Assembly (NCBI GenBank): GCA_017501225.1
Contig: JAFVXH010000022.1
Location: forward strand, 4,407-68,406
DNA from: Clostridia bacterium
GTDB lineage: Bacteria; Bacillota; Clostridia; Oscillospirales; CAG-272
Direction of reading: 5' to 3'
Length of the DNA stretch: 64,000 bases
Numbering within the stretch: the stretch's first letter is position 1; every line of letters starts with the position of its first letter. The translations under genes and the position numbers were made by a program. A model generated the notes under the pieces. It was not told where the DNA came from and did no database searches. It saw nothing but the letters and a program-made list of their open reading frames with translations. Positions 30,566 to 49,469 of the stretch are shown here, one piece after another.

Positions 30566-31975
30566 ATGACGAACAAAAAAAGATTACCCACCGCCTTGAT
30601 CTGCTTGCTTCTCTTGATCTCCGTTGTGCTGATCTCCTGTGCCGGCGGCACCGATTCGGGTAGCTCGACCACGGAAAAGACCACTGCAGAGTCCACGCCT
30701 GAGGCAACCACGGATGCAACCACCGAAGCAACTACGGTGGCAACGACAGAGGCAACGACAGAGGCAACGACGGAAGCCACCACGGTGGCAACGGGCTCGG
30801 ACGGATTTCCGCTGATCCCCACAGATCTTACCGCCGAGGTGATCGGAAAGGGAAATCAGATCCTTTCCCGTCTTGTGGACGATCCCATCACCGTGGAGAT
30901 TCACGACGGCGTGACCATTGATCTCAAATATCAGGGCTGGCCTACCATCTGTACCAGTGCCGACGGAAGCGTCATCTACGCCGTTTCCTCGGTGCGGATC
31001 GCCCACGTTGATATTTTCGGAGCCATCGGCTTTACCAAGAGTACGGACGGCGGCAAGACCTGGGAGCCCCTTCGCATCATCAAGGATACCCCTCTTGACG
31101 ACCGTGACTCGGGCATCGTGGACCTTGGAAACGGACACCTGATGGTGACCTGGTTTACACACGACGCAGTCAAATACCTGGATGGCGGAGTCTACCAGGC
31201 CTATCGCCGCAATCTTACCCAAGAGCAGCGGGATGCCGTGGATGCGCGTCTTGGTGCTTTGAGCGGAGAAGCGGCATTGGAAGGCTCTTACGTGATGCAC
31301 TCCTTGGATTACGGACAGACCTGGGGCGAGCCTATCGCCATTCCCGTAACGCTGCCGCACGGCGCAACCCTGATGCAGGACGGAAAAACCCTGATCTGCA
31401 TCGGACTGAAATGGGGAACCGCGGGCGCTTCCTTGGAAGGCGGCAAACGTATGCACATATTCAAGAGTGAAGACGGCGGCTATACCTGGAAATTCCACGG
31501 AACCCTTGATACGTCCGGCTTCAGCAGTCCCAGTGAGGCACATATTATTCAGCTGCGCGACGGCTCCTTCCTTGCCGCGTTCCGCTACGTTGTGGATGCG
31601 GGCAACAGTCTCGCGATCGGAACGGCAGTTGCTACCTCCCGCAACGGGACGCATTGGCAGGCACCCGTATCGGTCGGAGCGTCCGATCACAACGGAGCGC
31701 CCCCGCACCTGTTGGAGCTCTCCAACGGAATCGTGGTTCTGACCTACGGTCACAGACTCTTTCCCACGGGCATCCGCGCCCGCCTGAGCTACGACGGCGG
31801 ACACACCTGGGAGGACGAGATCGAGCTTTCCCGCTCACAGACCTGGGAGCAAACCGACCTCGGTTACCCCTCCACGGTCGAGCTTGCCGACGGAACCCTC
31901 CTGACTGCATACTATCAGCCGTATGGCAAGGACGGTCAGTGCTCCTTCCTGTTTGTGAAGTGGCAGCTGGTATAA
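30566..31975 (+). CDS. sialidase-like BNR/Asp-box beta-propeller lipoprotein (array gene 1, TEAT-linker type)
   Basis: 469 aa. Lipobox LLISVVLISCAGG and linker ..ATTEATTEATTEATTVATG. Asp-boxes STDGGKTW, SLDYGQTW, SEDGGYTW, SRNGTHW, SYDGGHTW. Shared motifs GWPT, DTPLDDRD, APPHL, GYPS. Confidence 0.75.
   Translation: MTNKKRLPTALICLLLLISVVLISCAGGTDSGSSTTEKTTAESTPEATTDATTEATTVATTEATTEATTEATTVATGSDGFPLIPTDLTAEVIGKGNQILSRLVDDPITVEIHDGVTIDLKYQGWPTICTSADGSVIYAVSSVRIAHVDIFGAIGFTKSTDGGKTWEPLRIIKDTPLDDRDSGIVDLGNGHLMVTWFTHDAVKYLDGGVYQAYRRNLTQEQRDAVDARLGALSGEAALEGSYVMHSLDYGQTWGEPIAIPVTLPHGATLMQDGKTLICIGLKWGTAGASLEGGKRMHIFKSEDGGYTWKFHGTLDTSGFSSPSEAHIIQLRDGSFLAAFRYVVDAGNSLAIGTAVATSRNGTHWQAPVSVGASDHNGAPPHLLELSNGIVVLTYGHRLFPTGIRARLSYDGGHTWEDEIELSRSQTWEQTDLGYPSTVELADGTLLTAYYQPYGKDGQCSFLFVKWQLV
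30698..30792 (+). repeat. in-frame 12-nt tandem repeat encoding (T-E/D/V-A-T)n linker
   Basis: Imperfect ACNGARGCNACN units inside array gene 1. Confidence 0.8.
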
Positions 31976-32043
31976 TCAGCTTGCCTTTCGATTGAGATCA
32001 AAGCAAAATTCGCTCCATAACGCAAGGAGGTACCAAACTGCGT

Positions 32044-33450
32044 ATGAAAACAAAAAGCTTGCTTACATCCTTGATCTGCCTGCTTCTGATGCTTTCTGCC
32101 GTGCTGATTTCCTGCGGCGAGGGCGCAAATCAGGGTCAGGCAACGGGAGAACCTACGACCGAGGCAACCACCGGCGTGACTACTGATGCAACCACCGAAG
32201 CGACTACCGAGGCAACCACGGAAGCTACCACGGAAGCTACCACGGAAGCCACCACAGTGGCAACGGGAGCGGATGGTTTTCCGCTCATTCCCACAGGCCT
32301 TACGGCAGAGATCATCGGGGAGGACAATCAGATCCTTGCCCGGCTTGTAGACGATCCCATTACCGTGGAGATCTATAACGGTGTCACCATCGACCTGCAC
32401 TATCAGGGCTGGCCTACGGTCTGTACCAATGCTGACGGAAGCGTCATCTATGCCGTTTCCTCGGTGCGAAACGCACACGTTGATATTTTCGGTGCCATCG
32501 GCTTTACCAAGAGCACGGACGGTGGCAAGACCTGGGAGCCCCTTCGCATCATCAAGGATACGCCTCTGGATGACCGTGACTGCGGTATTGTGGACCTTGG
32601 CAACGGACATCTGATGGTAACGTGGTTTACCCACGACGCTGTTAAATACCTTGAAGGTGGCAAATACGATTATTTCCGTAGGGCTCATACAGAGCAAGAG
32701 CTGGACGCTGTTGATGCGCGCCTTGCTGCTCTTAGCGGAGCGGATGCACTTGGGGCATCCTACGTGATGCACTCTTTGGACGGAGGACAAACGTGGGGCG
32801 AGCCCATCGTCATTCCCGTGACAACGCCACACGGCGCGACTCTGGCAAACGACGGCAAGACCCTGATCTGTGCCGGAACCCGATGGGGAACTGCCGGAAA
32901 ACAGCTTGCAAGCGGATACGCGCATATTATCGTCAGCACGGACGGCGGATATACGTGGCAGCGGCGAAGCGGCGTGAACGTTATCGGCTTCAGGGGCGCG
33001 TGTGAGGCACATATCATTCAGCTTCGCAACGGTGGCTTCCTCTGTGCCTTCCGATATGCGGTTACGGTCGGAAGCAACACAAGTGCACTTGCAACGGCAA
33101 TCTCAACCTCTGCGGACGGAATCGATTGGACTGCTCCCGTCCCGATGACGGATATCAATCAGGAGAACGGCGCACCTCCGCATCTGTTGGAGCTTGACAA
33201 CGGCGTCGTGGTGCTGACCTACGGACGTCGCCTGACTCCGACGGGCATCCGCGCCCGCCTGAGCTACGATGGCGGCAAGACCTGGACCAAGGAGATCATC
33301 CTTGCCGTTTCGGATACCTACAGCAAGGCTGATCTTGGATATCCCTCCACGGTTCAGCTTGCGGACGGAACGCTTCTGACGGCTTATTATCAGCCTAAGG
33401 GAAATGATGGCTACTGCTCCTTCCTCTTTGTGAAGTGGCAGCTTACATGA
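32044..33450 (+). CDS. sialidase-like BNR/Asp-box beta-propeller lipoprotein (array gene 2, TEAT-linker type)
   Basis: 468 aa. Lipobox VLISCGEG and linker TTEATTEATTEATTEATTEATTVATG. Closely parallels gene 1 along the whole propeller. Confidence 0.75.
   Translation: MKTKSLLTSLICLLLMLSAVLISCGEGANQGQATGEPTTEATTGVTTDATTEATTEATTEATTEATTEATTVATGADGFPLIPTGLTAEIIGEDNQILARLVDDPITVEIYNGVTIDLHYQGWPTVCTNADGSVIYAVSSVRNAHVDIFGAIGFTKSTDGGKTWEPLRIIKDTPLDDRDCGIVDLGNGHLMVTWFTHDAVKYLEGGKYDYFRRAHTEQELDAVDARLAALSGADALGASYVMHSLDGGQTWGEPIVIPVTTPHGATLANDGKTLICAGTRWGTAGKQLASGYAHIIVSTDGGYTWQRRSGVNVIGFRGACEAHIIQLRNGGFLCAFRYAVTVGSNTSALATAISTSADGIDWTAPVPMTDINQENGAPPHLLELDNGVVVLTYGRRLTPTGIRARLSYDGGKTWTKEIILAVSDTYSKADLGYPSTVQLADGTLLTAYYQPKGNDGYCSFLFVKWQLT
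32155..32262 (+). repeat. in-frame 12-nt tandem repeat encoding (TEAT)n linker
   Basis: Repeated ACCGARGCNACY units inside array gene 2. Confidence 0.8.
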
Positions 33451-33499
33451 TCGGATTTTTTTGCAATCACGATAAACGTATCAAAAGGAGATTGAGGCT

Positions 33500-34705
33500 A
33501 TGAAGAACCGTACGTTTCGGGCAAAGGTGTTGCCCGAGAATTACAACAAGCGTCTGGGAGATAAGCCCATCACGGTGGAGATCTGCAACGGTGTGACCGT
33601 CGATCTGGATTATCACGGCTGGCCCAGCATTCACAGAGGCAAGGACGGCGTACTGTACGCGGTTTCCTCGATCCGCACGCAGCACATCTGCCCCTTTGGC
33701 GCGATCGGACTGACCAAGAGCTACGACGGAGGAGAAACCTGGACGCCTTACCGCATCATTATTGATACGCCCTTGGACGACCGCGATTGCGGCATCGTCG
33801 ATCTTGGCGAGGGGCACCTGATGGTTTGGTGGTTTACACACGATGCGGTGAAATATCTGGAGGGTGAGCCCAAGACGCACCCGTACCGCCACTGGAGATA
33901 CAATCCGGCAAGAACCCCCGAGCAGCTTGCCGCAATCGATGAAAAATACGCAAAGCTTGACGAGGAGGCGGCATGCGGCGGCTCTTACGTGGCACACTCC
34001 CTCGACGGCGGAGAAACCTGGGGTGATCCCATCCGCGTTCCCGTCACCTGCCCCCACGGACCTACCCTGATGAACGACGGGAAGACGTTGATCGTGGCGG
34101 GATATCCGTGGTATTCCTACAAGGTCATGGATCCGCCTCTGCCCGGAAAGCACGTCCATTTGCTCACCAGCACGGACGGTGGATACACCTGGAGCATGCT
34201 CAATTCCATTCCGTTCCCCGCGCGTATCTTTGGGGACGCGTCGGAGTTCCACGTGCTTCAGCTTCGCTCGGGCACCATTCTCGCCGTGTACCGCGACAGC
34301 GGAACGGGGGAGAACCGTGGGCATCTGAAGACCAGCGTCGCGAGAAGCGAGGACGGAGGCAAGACCTGGAGTGAGTTTGAGCGTGTTCCCACCGCTACGG
34401 GTGGACCTCCTCACCTGTTCCAGCTTGCCGACGGCAAGGTGCTTCTGACCTACGGCTGCCGTACGGCTCCCGCTTGCGGTGAAAGATGTGTGGTCAGTGA
34501 CGATGACGGACTTACCTGGAGCAACGAGATGGTCATCAGCGTTGCAACCAGGGGCTTTGACATTGACCTCGGTTACCCCTCCTCCGCACAGGCGGATGAC
34601 GGTAGCATCGTAACGGTTTACTATCAGAAATTCGGCGAGGAGCCCAACTGCTCCTTCCTTTACACCAAATGGGAGCTGATCGAGGAAGGCACCATCGAGA
34701 TCTGA
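33500..34705 (+). CDS. sialidase-like BNR/Asp-box beta-propeller protein, leaderless (array gene 3)
   Basis: 401 aa. Starts MKNRTFRAKVLPENYNKRLGDKPITVEI with no hydrophobic signal. Asp-boxes SYDGGETW, SLDGGETW, STDGGYTW, SEDGGKTW, SDDDGLTW. AAAGGAG RBS. Confidence 0.75.
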   Translation: MKNRTFRAKVLPENYNKRLGDKPITVEICNGVTVDLDYHGWPSIHRGKDGVLYAVSSIRTQHICPFGAIGLTKSYDGGETWTPYRIIIDTPLDDRDCGIVDLGEGHLMVWWFTHDAVKYLEGEPKTHPYRHWRYNPARTPEQLAAIDEKYAKLDEEAACGGSYVAHSLDGGETWGDPIRVPVTCPHGPTLMNDGKTLIVAGYPWYSYKVMDPPLPGKHVHLLTSTDGGYTWSMLNSIPFPARIFGDASEFHVLQLRSGTILAVYRDSGTGENRGHLKTSVARSEDGGKTWSEFERVPTATGGPPHLFQLADGKVLLTYGCRTAPACGERCVVSDDDGLTWSNEMVISVATRGFDIDLGYPSSAQADDGSIVTVYYQKFGEEPNCSFLYTKWELIEEGTIEI

Positions 34706-34777
34706 TACACCTCCCAAGGATGAATACAAAGCAGGGAACTGCACGGCATAAAAAAATTGAAACTCAGAGGTATGATT

Positions 34778-36004
34778 ATGAAAAAGAATCGCACGTTTCG
34801 AGCAAAGGTGTTAAGGGAAAACGCCGAGATCAATCTGGCGCCCAATCCCGTGACGGCAGACGTTTATGACGGCGTGACCATTGACCTGGACTGCCACGGC
34901 TGGCCTACCATTCATAAGGGAATGGACGGCACGCTTTATGCTGTTTCCTCGGTCAGAAAGACGCATATGGATCCTTACGGTGCCATCGGTATGACGCAAA
35001 GCTCGGACGGAGGACAGACCTGGACGCCTTACCGCATCATCATTGATACGCCCCTGGATGACCGCGATTGCGGTATCATCGATCTTGGTGGCGGACACCT
35101 GATGGTATGGTGGTTTTCTCCCGATGCAACTAACTATCTGGGAAAGAACTACCGCGATTGGTACTACTATCGCTGTAACGCCGCGCAAAGAGATGCGCTG
35201 CTCAAGAAAATGGAATCTATCGTCGGTACGGAGGCGGCGCTCGGCGGCTCCTTCGTGTCGCACTCTCTGGACGGCGGAAAAACCTGGGGCGAGAAGATGC
35301 GCGTTCCGGTATCCAGCCCTCACGGACCTACCCTGATGAATGACGGAAAGACACTCTTGTCCTCCGGTCACTACTATTTCTCCGAGCGTTACGACGGACA
35401 AAAGTGGGTGCAGCCCAACATTTACGCCGTGATCAGTAAGGACGGCGGATATACCTGGGAGGTGCTCGCATCTCTCCCGCGTCCCAAGCCTACGTTCGGA
35501 TGCCCCTGCGAGCCGCACATTCTGCAGCTCAAGGACGGAACGATCCTGCTGGCTTACCGCGACAACGGTAACGGTCCTGACCGCGGAGAGCTTAAAACCT
35601 CGATCGCGAGAAGCGAGGACGGAGGCAAGACCTGGAGCGAATTTGAGCGCGTGCTCAACGCCAACGGCGGACCTCCTCACCTGTATCAGCTGAACGACGG
35701 CAAGGTGCTCCTGACCTACGGTTGCCGCACCGCTCCCGCGTGTGGGGAACGTTGCGTCGTCAGTGAGGACAGCGGCAAGACCTGGAGCAACGAGATGGTG
35801 CTCAGCGTCGCAAAGGCAGGCTATTGTAACGATTTGGGTTATCCCTCCTCCACACAGCTGGACGACGGCACGATCCTGAGCCTTTACTATCAGCGTCTTG
35901 ACAACAACGAGGCGGATGACGACAAGTTGATGTACGCCCCCTCACTCCTGCTTACCAAATGGAATTTGATCGAGGAAGCGGGCTGGTACGAGGACGAGGA
36001 ATGA
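34778..36004 (+). CDS. sialidase-like BNR/Asp-box beta-propeller protein, leaderless (array gene 4)
   Basis: Start chosen at MKKNRTFRAKVLRENAEINLAPNPVT by analogy with genes 5 and 6 (the track ORF starts 21 nt earlier). 408 aa, five Asp-boxes. Confidence 0.75.
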   Translation: MKKNRTFRAKVLRENAEINLAPNPVTADVYDGVTIDLDCHGWPTIHKGMDGTLYAVSSVRKTHMDPYGAIGMTQSSDGGQTWTPYRIIIDTPLDDRDCGIIDLGGGHLMVWWFSPDATNYLGKNYRDWYYYRCNAAQRDALLKKMESIVGTEAALGGSFVSHSLDGGKTWGEKMRVPVSSPHGPTLMNDGKTLLSSGHYYFSERYDGQKWVQPNIYAVISKDGGYTWEVLASLPRPKPTFGCPCEPHILQLKDGTILLAYRDNGNGPDRGELKTSIARSEDGGKTWSEFERVLNANGGPPHLYQLNDGKVLLTYGCRTAPACGERCVVSEDSGKTWSNEMVLSVAKAGYCNDLGYPSSTQLDDGTILSLYYQRLDNNEADDDKLMYAPSLLLTKWNLIEEAGWYEDEE

Positions 36005-36014
36005 AAAAACTGCT

Positions 36015-37244
36015 ATGAAGAAGAATCGTACGTTTCGGGCAAAGGTACTGAAAGAGAACGCCGAGATCAATCTCGCTCCCAATCCCGTGACGGCAGAGGT
36101 CGGCGGTGGTGTGACCATTGATCTGGACTATCACGGCTGGCCAACGCTTCACAAGGGACTTGACGGAACGCTTTACGCGGTTTCCTCGGTGCGCAAAACG
36201 CACGTTGATCCCTACGGTGCGATAGGCCTTACGCAAAGCTTTGACGGCGGCAAGACCTGGACGCCCTATCGCATCATTATGGACACTCCGTTGGATGATC
36301 GTGACTGCAGTCTGATCGACCTGGGTGGAGGACATCTGATGCTCTGGTGGTTTTCTCCCGACGCGTCCTCTTATATCGGCGACCGCTACCGTGAATTCTA
36401 TTTCCGCCGTTGCTCCAGTAAGGAGCAAGAGGTGGAGCTACTCAAGAAAATGGAAGCTCTTGAGGGTGAGGATGCCCTTGGCGGCTCCTTCGTGTCGCAC
36501 TCGCTGGACGGCGGTAAGACCTGGAGCAAAAAAGCGCGCGTTCCGGTATCCTCTCCGCACGGTCCCGTCCTGATGAACGACGGAAAAACTCTGCTTGCGG
36601 CAGGACACTACTATTTTTCCGAGCGTTACGACGGACAAAAGTGGACGAAGAACATTCACCTCGTCTGCAGCCGTGACGGCGGATATACCTGGGAACGCTT
36701 TGCGGAGCGTCCGAGACCCGCTATCAACTTCGGAACTCCGTGTGAACCTCACGTGCTCCAGCTTCGCGACGGCACGATCCTGCTTGCCTACCGCGACAGC
36801 CACAGAATGTCCGATGAGGTGCGCGGAGGGCTGAAGACCTGCATTGCCCGTTCCGAGGACGGCGGCAAGACCTGGACCGATTTCGAGCGCGTCATCAACG
36901 CAAACGGAGGACCACCTCATCTGTATCAGCTCAGTGACGGCAAGGTGCTCCTGACCTACAGCTGCCGTTACGCTCCCGCGTGCGGTCAGCGCTGCGTTGT
37001 CAGTGAGGACGGCGGCAAGACGTGGAGCAACGAGATGGTGCTCAGCGTCGCAAAGGACGCCTTCCACCACGATCTGGGCTACCCCTCCTCCGTACAGCTG
37101 GAGGACGGCACCATTCTGACACTGTTTTATCAGCGTCTGGACGATGATCCCGAAGCGCCAAAAACGCTTCTTTACCACTGCTCGCTTCTCCTGACCAAAT
37201 GGAATCTGATCGAGGAAGCCGGCTGGTATGAAACCGAAGATTGA
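36015..37244 (+). CDS. sialidase-like BNR/Asp-box beta-propeller protein, leaderless (array gene 5)
   Basis: 409 aa. MKKNRTFRAKVLKENAEINLAPNPVT. Asp-boxes SFDGGKTW, SLDGGKTW, SRDGGYTW, SEDGGKTW, SEDGGKTW. Confidence 0.75.
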   Translation: MKKNRTFRAKVLKENAEINLAPNPVTAEVGGGVTIDLDYHGWPTLHKGLDGTLYAVSSVRKTHVDPYGAIGLTQSFDGGKTWTPYRIIMDTPLDDRDCSLIDLGGGHLMLWWFSPDASSYIGDRYREFYFRRCSSKEQEVELLKKMEALEGEDALGGSFVSHSLDGGKTWSKKARVPVSSPHGPVLMNDGKTLLAAGHYYFSERYDGQKWTKNIHLVCSRDGGYTWERFAERPRPAINFGTPCEPHVLQLRDGTILLAYRDSHRMSDEVRGGLKTCIARSEDGGKTWTDFERVINANGGPPHLYQLSDGKVLLTYSCRYAPACGQRCVVSEDGGKTWSNEMVLSVAKDAFHHDLGYPSSVQLEDGTILTLFYQRLDDDPEAPKTLLYHCSLLLTKWNLIEEAGWYETED

Positions 37245-37283
37245 AGTTCTGAAAAATACGCATAAAAGCACAGAGGTGTAATT

Positions 37284-38504
37284 ATGAAAAAGAATCGCAC
37301 GTTTCGAGCTAAGGTGCTCAAGGCAAACGCCGAGATCGATCTGGCGCCCAATCCCGTGACGGTCGAGCTTGGCGACGGTGTGACCGTTGACCTGGATTAC
37401 CACGGCTGGCCCACGCTTCACAAGGGACTTGACGGAACGCTTTACGCCGTTTCCTCGGTTCGCAAGACTCACCACGATCTTTGCAGCGCGATCGGTATGA
37501 CGCAAAGCTCCGACGGAGGCAAGACCTGGACGCCTTACCGCGTCATTGTGGATACTCCGCTTGACGACCGTGATTGCAGCATCATTGACCTCGGAGGAGG
37601 TCACCTGATGGTTTGGTGGTTTTCTCCCGACGCCGCGGGCTGTCTTGGTGAAAATTACCGCGATTGGTACTTCCACAGATGTACCGCAGAGCAAAAGGAG
37701 GTGCTCCTGAAGCGCCTTCAGTCCCTCGAGGGGGATGACGCGTTGGGCGGATCCTTCGTATCTCACTCCTTGGATGGCGGCAAGACCTGGAGCAAGCGTA
37801 TGCGTGTTCCGGTATCCTCCCCGCACGGACCTGTTCTGATGAACGACGGCAAGACCCTGCTTGCATCGGGACACTACTACTTCTCCGAGCGTTACGACGG
37901 ACAGACTTGGGCAAAAGCAAATATCTATGCCGTGATCAGTAAGGACGGCGGATATACGTGGGAGGTGCTTGCATCTCTGACGCGCCCCAAGCATATGTTC
38001 GGAGGCCCCTGCGAGCCTCACATCCTGCAGCTCCGCGACGGTACCATTCTGTTGGTTTGCCGTGAGTGCGGAAGAGGCGAGGATGCCGGTCAGAACCGCA
38101 CCACCATCGCACGAAGCGAGGACGGCGGTAAGACCTGGAGCGATTTCGAGCGTGTCATCACCGCAAACGGAGGACCTCCTCATCTGTATCAGCTCAGTGA
38201 CGGCAAGGTGCTCCTGACCTACGGCTGTCGCATCGCGCCCGCTTGCGGTGAGCGTTGCGTCGTCAGCGAGGACGGCGGCAAGACCTGGAGCAACGAGATG
38301 GTACTCAGTGTTGCAAAGCAGCCCTATCACAACGATCTGGGCTATCCTTCCTCCGTACAGGTGGAGGACGGCACCATTCTGACGCTTTACTATCAGCGTA
38401 CGGACGATACGATCGATACGCCGAACCTTTCCTACGTTTGTAAGCTTCTCCTGACCAAATGGAACCTGATTGAGGAAGCCGGTTGGTCCGAGGTCGAGGA
38501 TTGA
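37284..38504 (+). CDS. sialidase-like BNR/Asp-box beta-propeller protein, leaderless (array gene 6)
   Basis: 406 aa. MKKNRTFRAKVLKANAEIDLAPNPVT. Very similar to genes 4 and 5. AGAGGTG RBS. Confidence 0.75.
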   Translation: MKKNRTFRAKVLKANAEIDLAPNPVTVELGDGVTVDLDYHGWPTLHKGLDGTLYAVSSVRKTHHDLCSAIGMTQSSDGGKTWTPYRVIVDTPLDDRDCSIIDLGGGHLMVWWFSPDAAGCLGENYRDWYFHRCTAEQKEVLLKRLQSLEGDDALGGSFVSHSLDGGKTWSKRMRVPVSSPHGPVLMNDGKTLLASGHYYFSERYDGQTWAKANIYAVISKDGGYTWEVLASLTRPKHMFGGPCEPHILQLRDGTILLVCRECGRGEDAGQNRTTIARSEDGGKTWSDFERVITANGGPPHLYQLSDGKVLLTYGCRIAPACGERCVVSEDGGKTWSNEMVLSVAKQPYHNDLGYPSSVQVEDGTILTLYYQRTDDTIDTPNLSYVCKLLLTKWNLIEEAGWSEVED

Positions 38505-38529
38505 CCAAACGGAGGTTTCGAACTATCCT

Positions 38530-39759: not shown

Positions 39760-39805
39760 TCGGACAAAAAAGAAACCAAGTAATCAATAAAAAGGAGATA
39801 TACCC

Positions 39806-41203: not shown

Positions 41204-41228
41204 TTATTTCTTGATAAAGGAATATATC

Positions 41229-42599
41229 ATGCGAAAACAGACATTGACTGCGATCATTTGTCTTTTGATCGCGTTCGTCACCGTCCTGACCGCTTGCGGC
41301 GGGGGCGGTGACGATAACGGCGACGCCACCACGGCAAGACCGAAGAAGACCACGGAGAGGACTGAGGCGACTACCGCCGCGACCACGATGCCGATGGTAA
41401 CGGCATCGAACCTGATCGCACAGGTGAATAAAGAGGATCAGAATCAAGTTCTTTGTCGCTTGACCGAGGGCGTTGAGGTCGAGATCTACAACGGTGTGAC
41501 GATCAATCTTGAATATATCGGCTGGCCCACAATTTGCAAGGGCGACGGCGACACGCTGTACGCAGTCGGCTCTGCGCGCCTTGAGCACGTCGATCCCTTC
41601 GGCACGACCATCTTCATGGAAAGCCATGACAATGGAGCCACGTGGAGCGCACCCCGTGTGATCGTCAATACCTATCTTGACGACCGCGATGCAGGTATCG
41701 TTTATATGGGCAACGGCCGCATGGTCGTGAGCTGGTTTACCGCCGAGGTTCAGCCTTATATCGACGGTGATTCCTCTTATTGGAGAAACCGCCCCAACGT
41801 GACCGAGGAGCAGGAGAATGCGGTGCTTGCAAGCTACGAAACGCTGACTCTTGCGCAGAAGCAAAGCGGCTCCTACGTCATCTATTCCGATGACTATGGC
41901 AAGACCTGGGGAGATCCCGTTCAGGTTCCCGTTTCGTCGCCTCACGGCCCGACTCTGGGTGCTGACGGAAAGACCTTGTACTACTTAGGACATACCGAGC
42001 ATCCCGGTGCTGCAGGCTTCAGCCTTGATGCAAAAAAGCTTCACGTGATCTACAGCACCAATTACGGACAGAGCTGGCGTCATTTTTGCGAGATCGACAA
42101 GGTCTCGGGCATGTCCTCCTACGAGCCTCATCTGATTCAGCTGAAGGACGGCTCCTTCGTGGCGTCCGTTCGAGTGGATACCGACAAGACCGCCTTCAAG
42201 CGCGGTATGGCTGTCTTTACCGCGACCTCCAAGGACGGCCGCACCTGGACGCCCTTCAAGCGTGTGGCTGCGGATATGTTCGGAGGTCCTCCTCACCTGA
42301 TGCAAATGAGCAACGGCGTGGTGGTACTGACCTACGGCTATCGCTTGACTCCCAGCGGAACCCGCGCCCGTCTGAGCTATGACGGCGGAAAGACCTGGGA
42401 CAAGGAGATCGTGATCGCCGTTACGGTTCAGCCCGATTTTGCTGACGTAGGATATCCCTCCACCATCCAGCTTTCCGACGGTACGCTTCTGACCGCATAT
42501 TATCAGCCGTATAGTAAGGAAGACATCAGTGGCAACGGTAAGAATGAACTGTTCTGCTCCTTCCTATATACCAAATGGAGCTTGACAGAAGCAGAGTAG
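41229..42599 (+). CDS. sialidase-like BNR/Asp-box beta-propeller lipoprotein (array gene 9, same linker type)
   Basis: Trimmed to MRKQTLTAIICLLIAFVTVLTACGGGGDDNGDATTARPKKTTERTEATTAATT.. 456 aa. Confidence 0.75.
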   Translation: MRKQTLTAIICLLIAFVTVLTACGGGGDDNGDATTARPKKTTERTEATTAATTMPMVTASNLIAQVNKEDQNQVLCRLTEGVEVEIYNGVTINLEYIGWPTICKGDGDTLYAVGSARLEHVDPFGTTIFMESHDNGATWSAPRVIVNTYLDDRDAGIVYMGNGRMVVSWFTAEVQPYIDGDSSYWRNRPNVTEEQENAVLASYETLTLAQKQSGSYVIYSDDYGKTWGDPVQVPVSSPHGPTLGADGKTLYYLGHTEHPGAAGFSLDAKKLHVIYSTNYGQSWRHFCEIDKVSGMSSYEPHLIQLKDGSFVASVRVDTDKTAFKRGMAVFTATSKDGRTWTPFKRVAADMFGGPPHLMQMSNGVVVLTYGYRLTPSGTRARLSYDGGKTWDKEIVIAVTVQPDFADVGYPSTIQLSDGTLLTAYYQPYSKEDISGNGKNELFCSFLYTKWSLTEAE

Positions 42600-42615
42600 A
42601 AAAAGGAGATTTTAC

Positions 42616-43971
42616 ATGAAAAACCATACATGGGTCATGGTTCTTTGCCTTTTGATCGCGTTTGTCACCGTCCTGACCGCTTGCGGCGGGAGCGGTGACG
42701 ATAACGGCGACGCCACCACGGCAAGACCGAAGAAGACCACGGAGAGGACCGAGGCAACAACCGCCGCGACGACTGCCCCCATGGTGACAGTATCCGATCT
42801 GATCCCTCAGATCAATGAGGCGGATCAAAATCTGATCCTTTCCCGCCCGATGGAGGGGATCGAGGTTGAGATCTACAACGGCGTTACCTACAACCTACAT
42901 TATCTCGGCTGGCCCACCGTTTGTAAGGGAGATGGAGAGACCCTTTATGCGGTCGCATCCCTGCGCCTTGAGCACATCGATCCCTTTGGAACGACGGTAT
43001 TTATGGAAAGCCACGACAGTGGCAAAACCTGGACCAAGCCTCGCGTCATCGTTGACACCGCCCACGATGAGCGCGATTCCGGTATCGTTTATATGGGGAA
43101 CGGTCGCATGCTGGTCAGCTATTTTACCCCTGACGTACAAAGATATATCGACGGCGATTACTCCTATTGGCAAGGTAGGGAAGATATTACCGAGGAGCAG
43201 AAGAAGGCAGTGCTTGCCCGCTACGAAACGCTTTCCTTGACGGAAAAGCAGGGAGGCTCCTATGTCGTTTACTCGGATGACTACGGACAGACCTGGGGCG
43301 AGCCCGTACGGGTTCCCGTTTCCGCTCCTCACGGACCGACTCTCGGTGCTGACGGAAAGACGCTGTATTATTTCGGACATCCCAATAATCCCGGTGCCGC
43401 AGGCTTTAGCTTTGATACAACCAAGCTGCACGTGATTACCAGCACCAACTACGGAAAAAGCTGGAAGCATCTGTGCCAGGTGGAAAAGCCCACGGGACTT
43501 TCCTCCTATGAGCCTCACCTGATCCAGCTGTCCGACGGCTCCTTTGTAGCCGCGGTTCGCTCGGATACCGATAAGACCAATACGGCTACTCGCGGAATGG
43601 CGGTTTATACCGCAACCTCAAAGGACGGAAGAACATGGACTCCCATGAAACGCGCGAGCAGAGATATGCTGGGAGGACCCCCTCACCTGATGCAGATGGA
43701 CAATGGCGTTGTCGTTCTGACCTACGGCTACCGTGAAGGAGAATGCGGATCCCGCGCTCGCCTGAGCTATGACGGGGGACAAACGTGGGGAGAGGAGATC
43801 GTGCTTGCCATCTCGGCATTGCCCGATAGCACCGACTGCGGATACCCCTCGACTGTCCAGCTTGCGGACGGAACACTTTTCACCATATATTATCAAGAGT
43901 ACGCTCCCAAGGATTATTTCTGCTCCATTCTGTATACCAAATGGAGCTTGGTAGAAGCGGATGCGCAATAA
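42616..43971 (+). CDS. sialidase-like BNR/Asp-box beta-propeller lipoprotein (array gene 10, same linker type)
   Basis: 451 aa. MKNHTWVMVLCLLIAFVTVLTACGGSGDDNGDATTARPKKTTERTEATTAATT.. AAAGGAG RBS. Confidence 0.75.
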   Translation: MKNHTWVMVLCLLIAFVTVLTACGGSGDDNGDATTARPKKTTERTEATTAATTAPMVTVSDLIPQINEADQNLILSRPMEGIEVEIYNGVTYNLHYLGWPTVCKGDGETLYAVASLRLEHIDPFGTTVFMESHDSGKTWTKPRVIVDTAHDERDSGIVYMGNGRMLVSYFTPDVQRYIDGDYSYWQGREDITEEQKKAVLARYETLSLTEKQGGSYVVYSDDYGQTWGEPVRVPVSAPHGPTLGADGKTLYYFGHPNNPGAAGFSFDTTKLHVITSTNYGKSWKHLCQVEKPTGLSSYEPHLIQLSDGSFVAAVRSDTDKTNTATRGMAVYTATSKDGRTWTPMKRASRDMLGGPPHLMQMDNGVVVLTYGYREGECGSRARLSYDGGQTWGEEIVLAISALPDSTDCGYPSTVQLADGTLFTIYYQEYAPKDYFCSILYTKWSLVEADAQ

Positions 43972-44008
43972 ACAGAAAAGACTAATAACGAACTACGGAG
44001 AACTACTT

Positions 44009-45469
44009 ATGCAACTCAAAAACCCTTTGGTGCTTGCGGTGTGCCTTCTGATTATGGTATCTACCGTTCTCGCTTCCTGCAATCCGACGGGTAGCGGCTC
44101 GAACGCAACCGGTGAACCCACAGAACCTACTGCAGACGCGACAACAGAGGTAACGACCGAAGCTACAACCGAAGCTACAACCGAAGCTACAACTGAAGCT
44201 ACCACCGAGGCGACAACCGAAGCCACCACCGAAGCTACTACGGGTGGAACAGAAAAGCCTCCCGTCACAACGGTAACGCATATGACAGCAGAAATTTTAG
44301 CAGGAAATCAAATCATTGGGCGTTTGCAAAACGACCCGGTTACCATTGAAATTTACAACGGAGTCACCATTGATCTGCATTACATCGGCTTTCCTACCAT
44401 TTGCAAAGGCGAGGGAAGCACTCTTTACGCAGTAGGCTCTGCCCGATTTGAGCATATCGATCCCTTTGGAACGATGGTGATGTTTGAAAGCCACGACAAC
44501 GGCGCGACCTGGAGCGAGCCTCGCGTGATCGTGGACACCCCCCTGGATGACCGCGATTCCGGAATTGCTTATCTTGGCAACGGACGCATCCTTGTCAGCT
44601 GGTTTTCGCCAAGCGCGAAGGAATTCATTGACGGCAATTACGCATATTTTCTGGAAAAACGAAAGCACGTCACTGATGAACAAAAGCAGGCGGTCTATGA
44701 CCTTTACGCAAGCCTTTCCGAGCAGGAACAGGCAGCGGGATCCTGGGTCATGCTCTCCGAGGATTACGGCAAGACCTGGAATACGCCCGTTCGCGTTCCG
44801 ATCTCCGCGCCTCACGGTCCGTCCGTGGGAATTGACGGAAAGACGCTGTACTACTTCGGTCACCCCAACAACCCGAAGGCGGCAGGTGCCCCTGACGTCC
44901 AAGCGGGACTCCTCTACGTGTATACCAGTGCGGACTACGGTAAGACCTGGCAGCAGATGAGCTATCTGACGCGCCCCCTTACCTGCTACGAGCCTCACAT
45001 CCTTCAACTCAAGGACGGATCCTTTATTGCCGCCGTTCGTGCGGATACCGATAAGAGCAACGACAGGACGCGCGGAATGGCGGTCTACGTTGCGACCTCA
45101 GAGGACGGCGTGACCTGGACGGAGCTGACGCGTCTTACCGAGGATATGCTGGGAGGACCTCCTCACCTGATGCAGATGTCCAACGGTGTGGTGGTTCTGA
45201 CCTACGGATACCGCGAGTCGCTTTGCGGTACTCGCGCGCGTCTGAGCTATGACGGCGGCGTTACGTGGGGCAAGGAGATCATACTTGCCGTTTCCGCTTC
45301 CTCGAACAACACCGACTGCGGATATCCCTCAACCGTTGAAATTGAGCCCGGTGTTCTGATCTCGGCGTACTATCAGCCTTACTCCCGTCAGGATATTATC
45401 CAGAACGACAAGGGAGAGCTGAACGGATCGCTGATGTATACGAAGTGGATGCTCACCGAAACCAAGTAA
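44009..45469 (+). CDS. sialidase-like BNR/Asp-box beta-propeller lipoprotein (array gene 11, TEAT-linker type)
   Basis: Trimmed to MQLKNPLVLAVCLLIMVSTVLASCNPTG.. 486 aa. Linker TTEVTTEATTEATTEATTEATTEATTEATTEATTGG. Confidence 0.75.
   Translation: MQLKNPLVLAVCLLIMVSTVLASCNPTGSGSNATGEPTEPTADATTEVTTEATTEATTEATTEATTEATTEATTEATTGGTEKPPVTTVTHMTAEILAGNQIIGRLQNDPVTIEIYNGVTIDLHYIGFPTICKGEGSTLYAVGSARFEHIDPFGTMVMFESHDNGATWSEPRVIVDTPLDDRDSGIAYLGNGRILVSWFSPSAKEFIDGNYAYFLEKRKHVTDEQKQAVYDLYASLSEQEQAAGSWVMLSEDYGKTWNTPVRVPISAPHGPSVGIDGKTLYYFGHPNNPKAAGAPDVQAGLLYVYTSADYGKTWQQMSYLTRPLTCYEPHILQLKDGSFIAAVRADTDKSNDRTRGMAVYVATSEDGVTWTELTRLTEDMLGGPPHLMQMSNGVVVLTYGYRESLCGTRARLSYDGGVTWGKEIILAVSASSNNTDCGYPSTVEIEPGVLISAYYQPYSRQDIIQNDKGELNGSLMYTKWMLTETK
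44138..44242 (+). repeat. in-frame 12-nt tandem repeat (ACCGAAGCTACA)n encoding (TEAT)n linker
   Basis: About eight consecutive units, several identical at the DNA level, inside array gene 11. Confidence 0.85.
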
Positions 45470-45506
45470 TCTTACTTCCCAAAATACCAAACTACGGAGG
45501 ACATTT

Positions 45507-46868
45507 ATGAAAAGAAAAAGCCTGCTGACCTTGGCGCTTTGTCTGCTGATCGCGTTTTCCACCGTTCTTGCCGCTTGCGGAGGGGACAGTGACAACGGCG
45601 ACGAAACCACGGCAAGGCCGAGGAAGACCACGGAACGGACCGAGGCGACCACTGCCGCTACGACCGCTCCCATGGTAACCGCTACCGATCTGGTGCCCCA
45701 GATCGACAAAGCGGATACCAACCAGATCCTTTCGCGCCTGACCAAGCCTCTGACCGTCAATATTGACGAGAACACCACCATTGATCTGCAATATCAGGGT
45801 TGGCCCACCGTTTGCAAGGGCGAGGACGGCACGCTTTATGCGGCAGCAAGTGCGCGTGTGCTTCACGTCGATCCCTTTGGCGTCGTCGTATTCTATGAAA
45901 GCCACGACAACGGAAAGACCTGGAGCGAGCCCAGCATCGTTTACGACAGTCCCTTGGATGACCGCGATGCGGGAATCGTTTACCTCGGGAACGGCAAGAT
46001 TCTGGTAAGCTGGTTTACCAACCTTGGACAGAGCTATATCGACGGCGATCTCTCCTCCTGGAGAAACAGCAATAAGATCTCGGATGAGCAGGAGGATGCC
46101 TACATTGCACGCTTCAATCAGCTTCCGCTTTCCGAAAGACAGAACGGATCTTACGTCATCCTCTCCGAGGACTACGGAAAGACCTGGGGAGAGCCCATCC
46201 AGGTTCCCGTTTCCGCTCCTCACGGACCGACACTGGGCAAGGACGGAAAGCTTTATTACCTCGGAACGGCACACAATGCCTCGGCAGCAGGCTTTAGCAG
46301 CTTCAACGGCAGCCGCTATCTGTACGTCATTTCCAGCGCCGATGGCGGAAGAACCTGGAGAGAGGTTTCCGCGCTTGAGAAGCCCACGACAAGCTTTGAT
46401 TTCTGCGAGCCTTACATCATTCAATTGACCGACGGCTCCTTCATTGCCGCCATTCGCGTGGCCATCGCACTTCACGATACCACCGATCCCACGCAGGGAA
46501 TGTGTACCTTCACCGCAACCTCCAAGGACGGTCGCAATTGGACGTCTATGGCACGCGTCAGTGAGAACATGTGGGGAGGGCCTCCTCATCTGCTGCAGCT
46601 CTCCAACGGCGTTGTGCTTCTGACCTACGGATACCGCATCACACCAACCTGCAGCATCCGCTACCGCCTGAGCTATGACGGAGGCAAGACCTGGAGCAGT
46701 GAGGAGCTGCTCACGCCCGCCCACAATCCCAACAATAACGACATGGGATATCCTTCCACGGTTGAGCTTGAGGACGGTACGCTTCTGACTGCCTATTATC
46801 AGACGTATCGGACGGATGGCTATTGCTCCTTCCTGTATACGACCTGGAAGCTGGTAGAGCAGGAATAA
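45507..46868 (+). CDS. sialidase-like BNR/Asp-box beta-propeller lipoprotein (array gene 12, KKTTERTEATTAATT-linker type)
   Basis: 453 aa. MKRKSLLTLALCLLIAFSTVLAACGGDSDNGDETTARPRKTTERTEATTAATTAPMVT.. The propeller is more diverged. Confidence 0.72.
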   Translation: MKRKSLLTLALCLLIAFSTVLAACGGDSDNGDETTARPRKTTERTEATTAATTAPMVTATDLVPQIDKADTNQILSRLTKPLTVNIDENTTIDLQYQGWPTVCKGEDGTLYAAASARVLHVDPFGVVVFYESHDNGKTWSEPSIVYDSPLDDRDAGIVYLGNGKILVSWFTNLGQSYIDGDLSSWRNSNKISDEQEDAYIARFNQLPLSERQNGSYVILSEDYGKTWGEPIQVPVSAPHGPTLGKDGKLYYLGTAHNASAAGFSSFNGSRYLYVISSADGGRTWREVSALEKPTTSFDFCEPYIIQLTDGSFIAAIRVAIALHDTTDPTQGMCTFTATSKDGRNWTSMARVSENMWGGPPHLLQLSNGVVLLTYGYRITPTCSIRYRLSYDGGKTWSSEELLTPAHNPNNNDMGYPSTVELEDGTLLTAYYQTYRTDGYCSFLYTTWKLVEQE

Positions 46869-47025
46869 CCCCCCTCGGTTCACTTTTGAACATCACAGTT
46901 CTATTCCATTTGACGTTTTTTTACATTTTGCCGTTTGGAAAGCCGCAGCGTAATAAAAACGCTATGACTTGTCCGTCCTTTTGGCAGTGTGTATGAAAAT
47001 AGATAACAAAAAGGAGAAATCAGAC

Positions 47026-49389
47026 ATGAAAGTAACATCAAAGATCATTGCCATCTTGCTCTGCCTTGCCATGACGGCGGGGGCGCTGATTCCTTGCGTA
47101 TCCGCTGCGGCTGACGTGCTGAGTGAGCAGGGTGACACCGTTTCTGCGCCGATCAACCTCAAAGACCTTTTGGCAGAGACGGATCAAACTCCGGAGCCCC
47201 CGTTTGATCTTGACATGCTCAAGGTATCCTATCAGTTCAACACCGATAAGAGCGCGATCCGTCTGGTCACCACCGTTGACGGATTGGAGTATACGGAGGC
47301 AGGATTTGTTCTCACCCTCGGAGATCAGCGTGCAAGCATTACGATCCACGAGGTCTACGGCTCCATCCTCGGTGCGGGACAGACCTATACGCCCACTATG
47401 GCAGGTGCTCCTACCTCGGAGTATTTTGCACTGTTTAACGTTACGGATCTCCCCGAGGAGTTCTCTCTCCTTGCCAAGGCGTTCGTTAGGACCACGGACG
47501 GAAATACCTATTTCGGCGCGGAACGTGAGATCATCAAGAAGCGCGGAGAATTGATTCTCGACACAAATGGCACCGTCAGCGGTTCCGTCGTATCCTGGAA
47601 TGATCTGGGGTGGGAGGTACACACTCATACCGCTGATGAGTGGGTGGTTACTAAGGAAGCGACTTATGACAGCGAGGGCTTGATGGAAGGTGTCTGCGCT
47701 TGCGGCGAGAAGTTAACGCAGGTCATCGCGAAGCGTGTTCTCGAGCTGGATCACGCTTTGAATGGCGACGGACAGAGCTATTCCATTACCGGTATCGGTG
47801 ATTGGGAGGATCCCGACGTCGTCATCCCCGTAACCTGTAATAGCCTGCCGATTACAAGCATCGGCTCCTTTGCATTCTACTCTTGCCTGGACATTGAAAG
47901 CATGACGTTTGCAGGAACCAAGGCACAGTGGGAAGGCATCAGCAAGGGAACGAACTGGGCACCCGCTAATTTGTCCCAGGTCGTTTGCTCCGACGGTACC
48001 GTAGCCGTTCAGCATGACGTTGCGGTGACCACCTCGGGTATCGTTTCGAATTTCAGCACAAAGCCCATGACCTACACGCTTGGCGATGTTAGTGTCAACC
48101 TCACCTTCCACGGCTGGCCTTCCATTACCGTGGATGAGAACGGCACGCTGTACGCAGTCAGCTCGGCTCGTCTGAGACACTCTTTGCCCATCGGCTGCAA
48201 CGTATTGATGAAGAGCACGGACGGAGGCACGACTTGGTCGAATCCCGTCATCATTCACGATACTCCCATGGATGACCGCGATACCGGTATTGAATACCTT
48301 GGCAACGGTAAGTTCCTCGTTACCTTCTTCACCACGGGTGTTGATAAGAAGAGCGACGGTACTTACACCACGAAGTTCTTAAAGGAAGGTCAGAGCATTA
48401 CCACCAAGGACGGTTACACGATCGTAGGTAAGGCGGGTGACACCGGTTGGCAGGATCAGGAGCCTGCTTGGGCTAGCGATCTGCTCACTTACTGGACGAC
48501 CTGCAATCTCGCAGACCTGATGAGTGGCTACCATTGCCTGATCTCTGACGATTACGGACAAACGTGGGAGTTGAAGTACAATACTCCTGTTTCCGCACCG
48601 CACGGCGCGATCCAGCTGGCAAACGGTGACTTGTTCTACGTCGGTCACAGCAACCAGAATAGAATTTTCGCATACGTCAGCAAGGATGGAGGACTTACTT
48701 GGACTCTCAAATCCACCATTGCGGTCGGCACTCCTTACTCTATGCTCGAGCCTCACGTCGCAGAGCTGCCGAACGGACGCCTGATCGCAACCTGGCGCGT
48801 CAACCTGACCAAGGTCACGATCGGCGATATTACGTACGAAGGTGCGGATGTCGGTGGACTTGATGCGAACGGTATCGGTATCTTCAAATACGGCGACCAT
48901 TACTATCGCATCTACCACGACGGCAACGACGGCAACAATAGCAACAACAGGATTGAAGATCTGGGCACGACCAAGCCCGCAACGCTCTATAGCGGATGCA
49001 CCTACATGGCGTACTCGGATGACGGCGGAGCTACCTGGAGCAAGTGTGAGCCCGTCTTTGACAAAAACGGCAAGCTGATCAACGGATATCCGCCCGAAAT
49101 GACGGTAACGCCCGAGGGAATCCTGGTTCTGACCTACTCGATCAGAGAGCCCGGTAACTACACCACCTGCGTGACCTACAGCTTCGACGGCGGTCTGACC
49201 TGGGAGCCCTCCGTAACCATCCGTACCGCTTCCACCTCTACGACCAAATACACCGACCACGGATATCCTTCGACGACTTATCTTGGCAACGGCGAGTTCA
49301 TCACGGTATACTATGAGGATTATAATGCCCAAAACCAGGGTATTCTGCGTTATACCAAGTGGACGCTCCAGAGCGGTCTTAGCGCGTAA
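47026..49389 (+). CDS. secreted multidomain protein: N-terminal extension (about 360 aa, includes an LRR-like segment) plus a sialidase-like Asp-box beta-propeller with large insertions (array gene 13)
   Basis: Trimmed to MKVTSKIIAILLCLAMTAGALIPCVSAAAD (AAAGGAGAAA RBS). 787 aa. C-terminal part has HGWPS, STDGGTTW, DTPMDDRD, SDDYGQTW, SKDGGLTW, EPH, SDDGGATW, SFDGGLTW, GYPS. Confidence 0.7.
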   Translation: MKVTSKIIAILLCLAMTAGALIPCVSAAADVLSEQGDTVSAPINLKDLLAETDQTPEPPFDLDMLKVSYQFNTDKSAIRLVTTVDGLEYTEAGFVLTLGDQRASITIHEVYGSILGAGQTYTPTMAGAPTSEYFALFNVTDLPEEFSLLAKAFVRTTDGNTYFGAEREIIKKRGELILDTNGTVSGSVVSWNDLGWEVHTHTADEWVVTKEATYDSEGLMEGVCACGEKLTQVIAKRVLELDHALNGDGQSYSITGIGDWEDPDVVIPVTCNSLPITSIGSFAFYSCLDIESMTFAGTKAQWEGISKGTNWAPANLSQVVCSDGTVAVQHDVAVTTSGIVSNFSTKPMTYTLGDVSVNLTFHGWPSITVDENGTLYAVSSARLRHSLPIGCNVLMKSTDGGTTWSNPVIIHDTPMDDRDTGIEYLGNGKFLVTFFTTGVDKKSDGTYTTKFLKEGQSITTKDGYTIVGKAGDTGWQDQEPAWASDLLTYWTTCNLADLMSGYHCLISDDYGQTWELKYNTPVSAPHGAIQLANGDLFYVGHSNQNRIFAYVSKDGGLTWTLKSTIAVGTPYSMLEPHVAELPNGRLIATWRVNLTKVTIGDITYEGADVGGLDANGIGIFKYGDHYYRIYHDGNDGNNSNNRIEDLGTTKPATLYSGCTYMAYSDDGGATWSKCEPVFDKNGKLINGYPPEMTVTPEGILVLTYSIREPGNYTTCVTYSFDGGLTWEPSVTIRTASTSTTKYTDHGYPSTTYLGNGEFITVYYEDYNAQNQGILRYTKWTLQSGLSA

Positions 49390-49469
49390 GCGAGGTCGGA
49401 GTATATTCTGTTCGACAGTGCCCGGATCTGATCCGGAAAAACGGACGGTAATTCCGTCAAACACACAAC

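Follow-up and report, generated by a model that had tools for sequence, protein, structure and literature searches.

This study concerns an array of 13 paralogous genes (g1 to g13) encoding sialidase-like beta-propeller proteins in a 64,000-nucleotide stretch of DNA from a Clostridia bacterium (assembly GCA_017501225.1, contig JAFVXH010000022.1, positions 4,407 to 68,406), which we refer to as the window. The 13 open reading frames (ORFs) lie on the + strand, fill positions 30566-49389 between mgsA and a convergent P-type ATPase gene and are all paralogs (Table 1), so that both the ORFs and the Pfam matches bear out the arrangement given in a preliminary description of this sequence. In the Pfam comparison suggested there, every copy exceeded the BNR_2 (PF13088) gathering score of 31.4 bits, with 51.6-83 bits and E values of 1e-13 to 3e-23. 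The alignment of the copies spans a propeller domain of some 380 amino acids (aa) with pairwise identities of 30-79%, and the blocks that had been listed as shared (GWPT, DTPLDDRD, PHGP, EPH, GGPPHL, and GYPS) recur in most of them with minor variants. Asp-boxes (S-x-D-x-G-x-T-W) occupy five equivalent positions. Five boxes per copy, as initially reported, are found under the strict pattern in g3-g7 and g13 but not in the lipoprotein copies, where one or two boxes are degenerate: g1, g2, g11, and g12 have four strict boxes, while g8-g10 have three, or four under a relaxed pattern.

Start codons were taken as those with a Shine-Dalgarno sequence upstream, and gene coordinates and gaps follow from this choice. 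Each of the 13 genes has its own Shine-Dalgarno sequence and an intact ORF, and the gaps from g1 to g13 (68, 49, 72, 10, 39, 25, 46, 25, 16, 37, 37, and 157 nt) exactly reproduce the lengths given before. Among four promoter-like sites found on the + strand by our scan, a single one lies upstream of the array and is a candidate operon promoter. The leader of g1 neither matched Rfam nor folded significantly (z = -1.7), and hence no riboswitch or structured leader was found there. Downstream of g13, a strong hairpin is the only one of its kind on the + strand within 29900-49800 and constitutes a candidate operon terminator. The only other + strand hairpin inside the array is a weak stem within g11, which agrees with the earlier statement that the intergenic gaps contain no terminator hairpin. 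Based on the short gaps, the single upstream promoter-like site, and the sole strong + strand hairpin after g13, the array is probably one operon with one long transcript.

The proteins fall into four architectural subtypes, as had been proposed. Seven of them carry a signal peptide with a canonical lipobox at its end ([LVI][ASTVI][GAS]C, read straight off the sequences) followed by linkers rich in Thr, Glu, and Ala that are in part encoded by 12-nt tandem repeats. Five others (g3-g7) begin at the propeller with an N-terminus that is not hydrophobic, and these are predicted to be cytoplasmic. In a correction to the preliminary description, the signal peptide of g13 contains LIPC, a non-canonical lipobox.

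Table 1. Positions of the array genes, of putative expression signals, and of other features in the window
Feature	Clade	Position	Strand	Length (aa)	Remarks
g1	A	30566-31975	+	469	Lipobox LISC; Thr/Glu/Ala-rich TEATT linker; BNR_2 propeller
g2	A	32044-33450	+	468	Lipobox LISC; TEATT linker; propeller; 75% identity to g1
g3	B	33500-34705	+	401	Propeller alone; without signal peptide; predicted cytoplasmic
g4	B	34778-36004	+	408	Propeller alone; without signal peptide
g5	B	36015-37244	+	409	Propeller alone; without signal peptide
g6	B	37284-38504	+	406	Propeller alone; without signal peptide; copy used for structure model
g7	B	38530-39759	+	409	Propeller alone; without signal peptide
g8	C	39806-41203	+	465	Lipobox LTAC; TTxRPKKTTERTEATTAATT linker; propeller
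g9	C	41229-42599	+	456	Lipoprotein (LTAC); propeller
g10	C	42616-43971	+	451	Lipoprotein (LTAC); propeller
g11	C (by propeller phylogeny)	44009-45469	+	486	Lipobox LASC; long TEATT linker
g12	C	45507-46868	+	453	Lipobox LAAC; propeller
g13	D	47026-49389	+	787	Signal peptide; N-terminal region of about 340 aa; propeller with large loop insertions
Sigma-70-type promoter-like site		30398-30426	+		TTGCCT, 17 nt, TACAAT; about 140 nt 5' of g1; candidate operon promoter
GC-rich hairpin followed by T-run		49472-49496	+		Strong; terminator-like on both strands; shared with convergent P-type ATPase gene; candidate operon terminator
Weak hairpin		44029-44045	+		5-pair stem in signal-peptide codons of g11
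SCIFF peptide gene		29221-29367	-		Six cysteines in 45 residues; just upstream of mgsA
Radical-SAM maturase gene		27771-29192	-		Just upstream of mgsA
Tetrahydrofolate (THF) riboswitch		16383-16493	+		Rfam RF01831, 73 bits
Mur-ligase-family gene		17234-18511			Possibly folylpolyglutamate synthase
Three consecutive ORFs		22165-26243		561, 486, 247	No Pfam match at E <= 1e-4
Glycosyltransferase/pyruvyl transferase fusion		6284-8650	-	788	GT4 glycosyltransferase and polysaccharide pyruvyl transferase domain

Fold, family, and putative active site

A structure model of g6 generated with AlphaFold2 (AF2) from 85 homologues (predicted local distance difference test score 91, predicted template modelling (TM) score 0.92) comprises six blades of four strands each, with a helical insert of some 40 residues in the second blade. 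Whether compared by sequence, by profile, or by fold, the PDB entry that matches best is 5HX0, with E values of 3.5e-20 for g6 and 4.8e-33 for the family profile and a Foldseek E value of 2e-18 (TM 0.66-0.73). The PDB matches that follow are GH33 sialidases and KDNases, many of which were found by Foldseek with the g6 model (E 1e-12 to 5e-15, TM around 0.6, 12-21% identity), and GH93 arabinanases are among the weaker ones. The sialidase-like fold assigned in the preliminary description is therefore supported by the model as well as by its structural matches. Searches against NCBIfam gave only sub-threshold hits, with around 22-24 bits for the neuraminidase model compared to a cutoff of 900, and close homologues in public databases are annotated, where named, as "exo-alpha-sialidase" or "sialidase family protein". 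The family is sizeable, as 268 clusters at E <= 1e-30 and 1680 at E <= 1e-10 were retrieved when 1.84 billion cluster representatives were searched exhaustively.

The array proteins belong to an uncharacterised clade of the sialidase superfamily that includes Dfer_1899 of Dyadobacter fermentans, the protein of structure 5HX0, which was deposited as a protein of unknown function. Identity between Dfer_1899 and the array proteins is about 21%, and alignment is poor over the N-terminal third and in the helical insert. Dfer_1899 is encoded by a single-copy gene in a Bacteroidota genome, as opposed to the 13-copy array described here.

Several residues are invariant in all 13 copies (R60, H63, D94, R96, D97, H181, E244, R260, D351, Y354, and Y370 in g6 numbering), and most of these are also unchanged across 85 diverse homologues. 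Furthermore, 5HX0 has E, R, H, R, DLGY, and YY motifs in common with the family (E..R, GxPxH, YGxR, DLGYP, and YY). For a comparison with GH33, full-length mapping by phmmer, hmmsearch, and hhalign had to be rejected because the alignments slip by one blade due to the periodicity of the Asp-boxes, and only blade 1 of Clostridium perfringens NanI aligned in register. In this alignment, G41-W42-P43-T-L of the family falls on R-I-P-A-L of NanI, so that the position of the arginine in the "RIP" motif is taken by Gly41, which is invariant in the 13 copies and also present in the family consensus. No copy has R-[ILV]-P at this place, which leaves the array proteins without the first of the three GH33 triad arginines. 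The invariant R60 aligns with the Arg of the NanI "DAR" motif, while a six-residue NanI segment that includes the acid/base residue D291 (by our own offset calculation) corresponds to a gap in the family alignment. Two residues past this gap, D65 is an Asp in 11 of the 13 copies but a Cys in the consensus of the wider family, and the neighbouring H63 is invariant.

Equivalences further downstream are proposed from motifs and spacing. R260 (13/13), R316 (12/13), and R324 (12/13) would by spacing alone correspond to the second and third GH33 arginines, and Y354 (in DLGYPS) and E244 (in EPH), both invariant and also present in 5HX0, may by motif and spacing be equated with the Tyr/Glu pair of GH33. 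The residues E244-R260-R324-Y354-Q371 are spaced by 16, 64, 30, and 17 positions. Those of Salmonella NanH (E231-R246-R309-Y342-E361 in the numbering of Crennell et al. 1993) are reportedly spaced by 15, 63, 33, and 19. Judged by position against this numbering, the Glu of the "LYE" motif would be replaced by a Gln (Q371) in 12 of the 13 copies. As this Glu supports the RIP arginine in GH33, its exchange would be consistent with the arginine being gone.

Overall, the array family shares with GH33 enzymes (NanI of C. perfringens, Salmonella NanH, and the sialidase of Micromonospora viridifaciens) the six-bladed propeller, Asp-boxes in the turn between strands 3 and 4, and an alignable blade-1 strand (xxP-[ST]-L...DGT); judged by position and spacing, it would also have equivalents of the Glu/Tyr pair, of two arginines, of the DAR arginine, and of the Asp after the first Asp-box. 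It differs from them by the missing RIP arginine, an acid/base loop that is shortened in the alignment, and the apparent exchange of the LYE Glu as well as by features of its own, namely the blade-2 helical insert and the invariant H63, DDRD (D94-D97), and H181, to which H300 (12/13) can be added; most of the family-specific motifs recur in 5HX0. We read this pattern as a sialidase-derived active site in which the nucleophile pair appears to be kept and the binding site for the sugar acid to be remodelled. With the RIP arginine, a defining feature of GH33 is lost, and for this reason we refrain from classifying the proteins as GH33 sialidases. Of the earlier sialidase reading, the fold thus stands, while the assignment to canonical sialidases is not supported, given the Gly at the RIP position, the gap at the acid/base loop in the NanI alignment, and the fact that the best solved relative is Dfer_1899.

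The paralogs differ most from each other in specific loops. When the alignment of g1-g12 was split according to the strand assignment of the g6 model, mean pairwise identity in the loops joining strands 2 and 3 of each blade (B-C loops) was 0.27 compared to 0.54-0.60 in strands, inter-blade D-A loops, and Asp-box turns. The most variable B-C loops are those of blades 3, 4, and 6 (0.11-0.16), and the blade-2 helical insert is another of the more variable parts of the protein. The Asp-boxes of sialidases face away from the active site. By this topology, the B-C loops would lie on the active-site face, which would mean that a fixed catalytic core is placed in diversified surroundings.

The array in other genomes and between strains

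The array is not confined to this genome but is found in a small lineage of uncultured Clostridia. The exact g6 protein is encoded on four metagenome contigs, and the same locus was assembled in another metagenome-assembled genome (MAG), GCA_017502365.1 (contig L090), as well as in three further metagenome assemblies; a metagenome scan with g6 as query returned only distant relatives. Over 21.2 kb, L090 and the window are colinear and 96.1% identical. More distant MAGs have arrays of 13 copies that fill a 23.5-kb contig (L001), of nine copies (L003), and of at least eight copies (L002), the last of which lies directly downstream of the same SCIFF-mgsA neighbourhood. Outside this lineage, the family occurs once, rarely twice, per approximately 20 kb in 78 other genome loci from many phyla. 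On one short metagenome contig of the same species (L093, 6376-8736), two array genes are split into ORFs of 319, 337, and 130 aa, which could be strain-level pseudogenisation or an assembly error.

In a neighbour-joining tree, the copies form four clades that are common to the genomes: A (g1-g2; lipoproteins), B (g3-g7; no signal peptide), C (g8-g12; lipoproteins), and D (g13; the terminal multidomain protein). The phylogeny and synteny comparison that had been proposed thus revealed a conserved layout, with the order A-B-C-D being the same in the window, L001, and L002 and with retained mgsA/SCIFF synteny, while most copies of L003 form their own branches beside clade C. Within clades, copy number varies by genome; clade B, for example, has one member in L001 and L002 but five in the window. 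Shared clades in a shared order combined with varying copy numbers indicate that the array predates these species and has since undergone birth and death of copies.

In the related arrays, g13 has giant counterparts with a length of about 1500-2000 aa, encoded at 16849-21161 of L001, 14289-20237 of L002, and 13011-18953 of L003. Across the N-terminal region of g13 and these giant terminal proteins, Pfam and NCBIfam searches detected no domain except for a weak GLUG motif, and a homology search with the g13 region gave only a fragment resembling LRR_5/BspA-type surface proteins. In the giant proteins, only the C-terminal propeller is recognisable, plus the weak GLUG motif in L001, and g13 of the window looks like a shortened version of them.

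The duplicates are old and have been kept under purifying selection, as is evident from synonymous divergence (dS) of around 1 in the closest paralog pairs together with low ratios of nonsynonymous to synonymous divergence (dN/dS; 0.16-0.22 for these pairs and 0.2-0.34 for more distant ones). We also compared window positions 30566-46003, covering 12 array genes, with the same locus in L090. Flanking genes are 98.5-100% identical between the two strains, while identity drops to 90-97% in 10 of the 12 array genes, the other two being g7 and g12 (aligned part) with 99%. Synonymous divergence is 0.10-0.36 in array genes other than g7 and 0.03-0.04 in the flanks, which amounts to 3-10 times the value of the flanks for most genes, and dN/dS between the strains is 0.07-0.19. 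The differences fall in mosaic patches. We considered gene conversion from resident paralogs as their source, but the positional orthologue was the best match in all but one tile, with one possible exception of paralog copying between g1 and g2. As the patches are not explained by copying from resident paralogs, they suggest that diverged alleles were imported by recombination. In-frame indels between the strains affect the blade-2 helical insert (15 nt in g2 at 32649 and 12 nt in g3 at 33867-33883).

Beyond the arrays, we clustered the neighbours of 79 relatives that are present as single copies or at most two copies per locus. Recurrent neighbours include AraC-type regulators and a PnuC-like transporter (10 loci each), Gfo/Idh/MocA oxidoreductases (8 loci), short-chain dehydrogenases (5 loci), GH78 alpha-L-rhamnosidases (5 loci in four phyla), and a melibiase-like protein encoded directly downstream (4 loci). 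Single loci add GH92, GH2, GDSL esterases, and FG-GAP proteins, and mannosidase and galactosidase genes are among the neighbours. No sialate lyase, epimerase, or kinase was among the recurrent neighbours. The hosts range from marine SAR202, Dehalococcoidia, Armatimonadota, and Lentisphaerota over groundwater Verrucomicrobiota to Bacteroidota. Together, neighbours and hosts support a role in glycan breakdown and argue against a substrate that is restricted to animals.

In four Eubacteriales/Clostridia MAGs (L010, L007, L012, and L021), an AraC-family regulator gene precedes the single-copy relative. A melibiase-like protein of about 515-575 aa is encoded by the next gene downstream in L010, L007, and L012 and by the second one in L021. 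This mini-locus of AraC-type regulator, relative, and melibiase-like protein could help to identify the substrate.

A putative glycosidase panel and its alternatives

With moderate confidence, we interpret the array as a lineage-specific, probably co-transcribed expansion of putative glycosidases that would provide a panel of specificities on a glycan that is probably not sialic. Tandem expansion of hydrolase families is a known type of event. Such an expansion in one lineage would have produced an operon of six-bladed propeller enzymes acting as exo-glycoside hydrolases, in which one catalytic core, composed of the Tyr354/Glu244 pair, Arg260, Arg316 or Arg324, and the family-specific DDRD and His residues, would be combined with differing substrate-contacting loops into a panel of related specificities. 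Seven copies would be displayed on the outer face of the cell membrane via a lipid anchor and a Thr-rich stalk, one would be a secreted multidomain protein, and five would act in the cytoplasm. A complex glycan might thus be handled in two compartments by trimming at the surface and subsequent completion on imported fragments. The data show the paralogy, the fold, the conserved residues, the predicted signals for localisation, purifying selection, the conservation of the array in other strains and species, and the loss of the RIP arginine; from these we infer co-transcription, hydrolase activity, the catalytic roles of individual residues, this division of labour between compartments, and the non-sialic nature of the substrate. 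In a bolder version that we offer tentatively, as possible rather than probable, the Dfer_1899-like clade would be a new glycoside hydrolase family apart from GH33 with a kept Tyr/Glu nucleophile and a carboxylate-binding site rebuilt through loss of the RIP arginine and gain of the DDRD motif and His residues. It would act on a sugar other than sialic acid, for example a deoxy sugar or another acidic sugar from glycans of plants or microbes, and the operon described here would be a self-contained set of 13 enzymes with surface and cytoplasmic paralogs that dismantle one heterogeneous polymer.

Several points weigh against the glycosidase panel. Co-transcription is deduced from gaps and signals in the DNA, the catalytic assignment is based on one blade-1 alignment and on motif spacing, and the placement of the variable loops on the active-site face follows from general sialidase topology. 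A literature search on 5HX0/Dfer_1899 found nothing, and no member of the clade has a demonstrated activity. The genomic contexts of two single-copy relatives are uninformative (housekeeping genes or prophage). Finally, the locus is devoid of transporter and regulator genes, so that the two-compartment scheme needs uptake genes that are encoded elsewhere.

One alternative is a true GH33 exo-alpha-sialidase panel directed at different sialic or nonulosonic acids or linkages on host glycans. The database annotation of the homologues, the sialidase-like fold, and the retention by position of the Tyr/Glu pair and at least two arginines speak in its favour, and the source may be a gut microbe that would encounter sialoglycans, since the MAG accession and the sample names are similar to those of a ruminant-gut series. 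Yet the RIP arginine is a Gly in all copies and in the family consensus, 12 of 13 copies have, by position, a Gln instead of the Glu that would buttress it, the alignment shows no counterpart of the NanI acid/base loop, and GH33 structures match by sequence only through Asp-box-driven, blade-slipped alignments. Genes for nan catabolism or transport were found neither among the flanks and scanned ORFs of the 64-kb window nor near relatives, and the family is common in settings without an animal host (SAR202, Dehalococcoidia, groundwater Verrucomicrobia). We therefore regard this alternative as unlikely. The preliminary description had suggested a specificity panel for different nonulosonic acids or linkages; we retain the idea of a panel but not these substrates, given the lost RIP arginine, the non-host relatives, the rhamnosidase, mannosidase, and galactosidase neighbours, and the lack of sialate genes beside these relatives. 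A different kind of reaction, such as that of a lyase, a transglycosylase, or a hydrolase of non-carbohydrate substrates, would fit the incomplete GH33 catalytic set, the family's own histidines (H63, H181, and usually H300) and DDRD motif, and the varied chemistry hosted by propellers of this superfamily, with GH93 arabinanases among the weaker matches. It is improbable in our view, as the Tyr/Glu pair of retaining sialidases is kept by position and the relatives' neighbours are mostly glycoside hydrolases and sugar regulators.

The proteins could also be non-catalytic surface or binding proteins, for example adhesins or a variable coat, whose expansion and mosaicism result from diversifying pressure by phages or the host. 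Eight of the 13 are exported, seven of these as lipoproteins on long stalks, the array genes have diverged between strains far more than their flanks and in mosaic patches, and g13 and its giant counterparts have adhesin-like extensions (the LRR_5 fragment and the GLUG motif). This possibility nevertheless appears distinctly unlikely because five copies have no export signal, charged and aromatic residues of the active-site type are invariant in all 13 copies and across phyla, dN/dS is low (0.07-0.34) both among paralogs and between strains, and relatives reside in glycan-degradation loci. The last alternative, an expanded or chimeric repeat created during assembly or a decaying array of pseudogenes, could appeal to the metagenomic origin of the sequence and to the split ORFs of two copies on L093, but it is effectively refuted. 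A DNA repeat scan of the array found at most around 90% identity over 100-300 nt, and, combined with protein identities of 30-79%, such short repeats identify the copies as diverged paralogs and make a collapse or expansion by the assembler implausible. Independent assemblies, of another MAG and of at least three more metagenome samples, moreover have the same order and content, so that the artefact scenario raised in the preliminary description falls on both the strong divergence of the copies and the independent assembly in L090. Decay is at odds with 13 of 13 intact ORFs that have Shine-Dalgarno sequences and are under purifying selection.

Expansions with some resemblance to the putative glycosidase panel are known from other systems. 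The trans-sialidase family of Trypanosoma cruzi consists of massively expanded, surface-anchored paralogs of the sialidase fold, many of which lack canonical catalytic residues. The array resembles it as a set of expanded, diverged, and surface-anchored paralogs of this fold, but the T. cruzi proteins are eukaryotic, encoded by hundreds of dispersed copies, and linked to immune evasion, whereas the array is a probable bacterial operon of 13 genes under purifying selection with five copies that are predicted to be cytoplasmic. In gut bacteria, glycoside hydrolases and surface lipoproteins also expand in tandem, which gives rise to specificity panels by birth and death of copies, and Thr-rich linkers are used there in lipoprotein anchoring. 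The glycoside hydrolase loci of gut bacteria usually mix enzyme families with transporters, binding proteins, and regulators, while the array consists of a single family without any accessory gene. Our literature search on BNR_2 arrays, GH33 copy number in the rumen, and new sialidase-like glycoside hydrolase families returned nothing relevant, and the earlier impression that a 13-copy single-family array has not been described thus holds for the literature searched.

The clade comprises hundreds of clusters at 50% identity from many phyla with one deposited structure, and annotation pipelines label its members as "exo-alpha-sialidase". Should this label be incorrect, gut and environmental metagenomes are being credited with too many sialidases. 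The array itself offers 13 natural variants of one core with differing loops as a panel for finding the substrate and mapping specificity. An operon of one family that pairs lipoprotein and cytoplasmic isoforms would be an unusual layout of glycan breakdown for Gram-positive gut bacteria.

Neighbouring genes and other features of the window

Upstream, the array is flanked by genes for an Orn/Lys/Arg decarboxylase, the SCIFF peptide and its radical-SAM maturase, and mgsA; downstream follow the convergent P-type ATPase gene, a pantothenate-kinase-like gene, and genes for NFACT/RqcH and the thioredoxin reductase TrxB. These flanks are housekeeping genes, and the other ORFs of the window that we scanned encode housekeeping or cell-envelope functions. 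Neither in the array nor adjoining it did the flanks and the scanned ORFs contain a transporter, a regulator, a nan gene, or a mobile element, and a sialate lyase, epimerase, kinase, or transporter was likewise absent from the flanks and from the scanned ORFs of the whole window. The absence of accessory genes noted in the preliminary description is thereby confirmed. The SCIFF-mgsA neighbourhood also precedes the related arrays in L002 and L090.

Farther upstream in the window, three consecutive ORFs are without Pfam match, and a THF riboswitch is followed at its 3' side by a gene of the Mur ligase family that possibly encodes folylpolyglutamate synthase. Close to the 5' end of the window, a GT4 glycosyltransferase fused to a polysaccharide pyruvyl transferase domain suggests that the organism has a pyruvylated cell-surface polymer.

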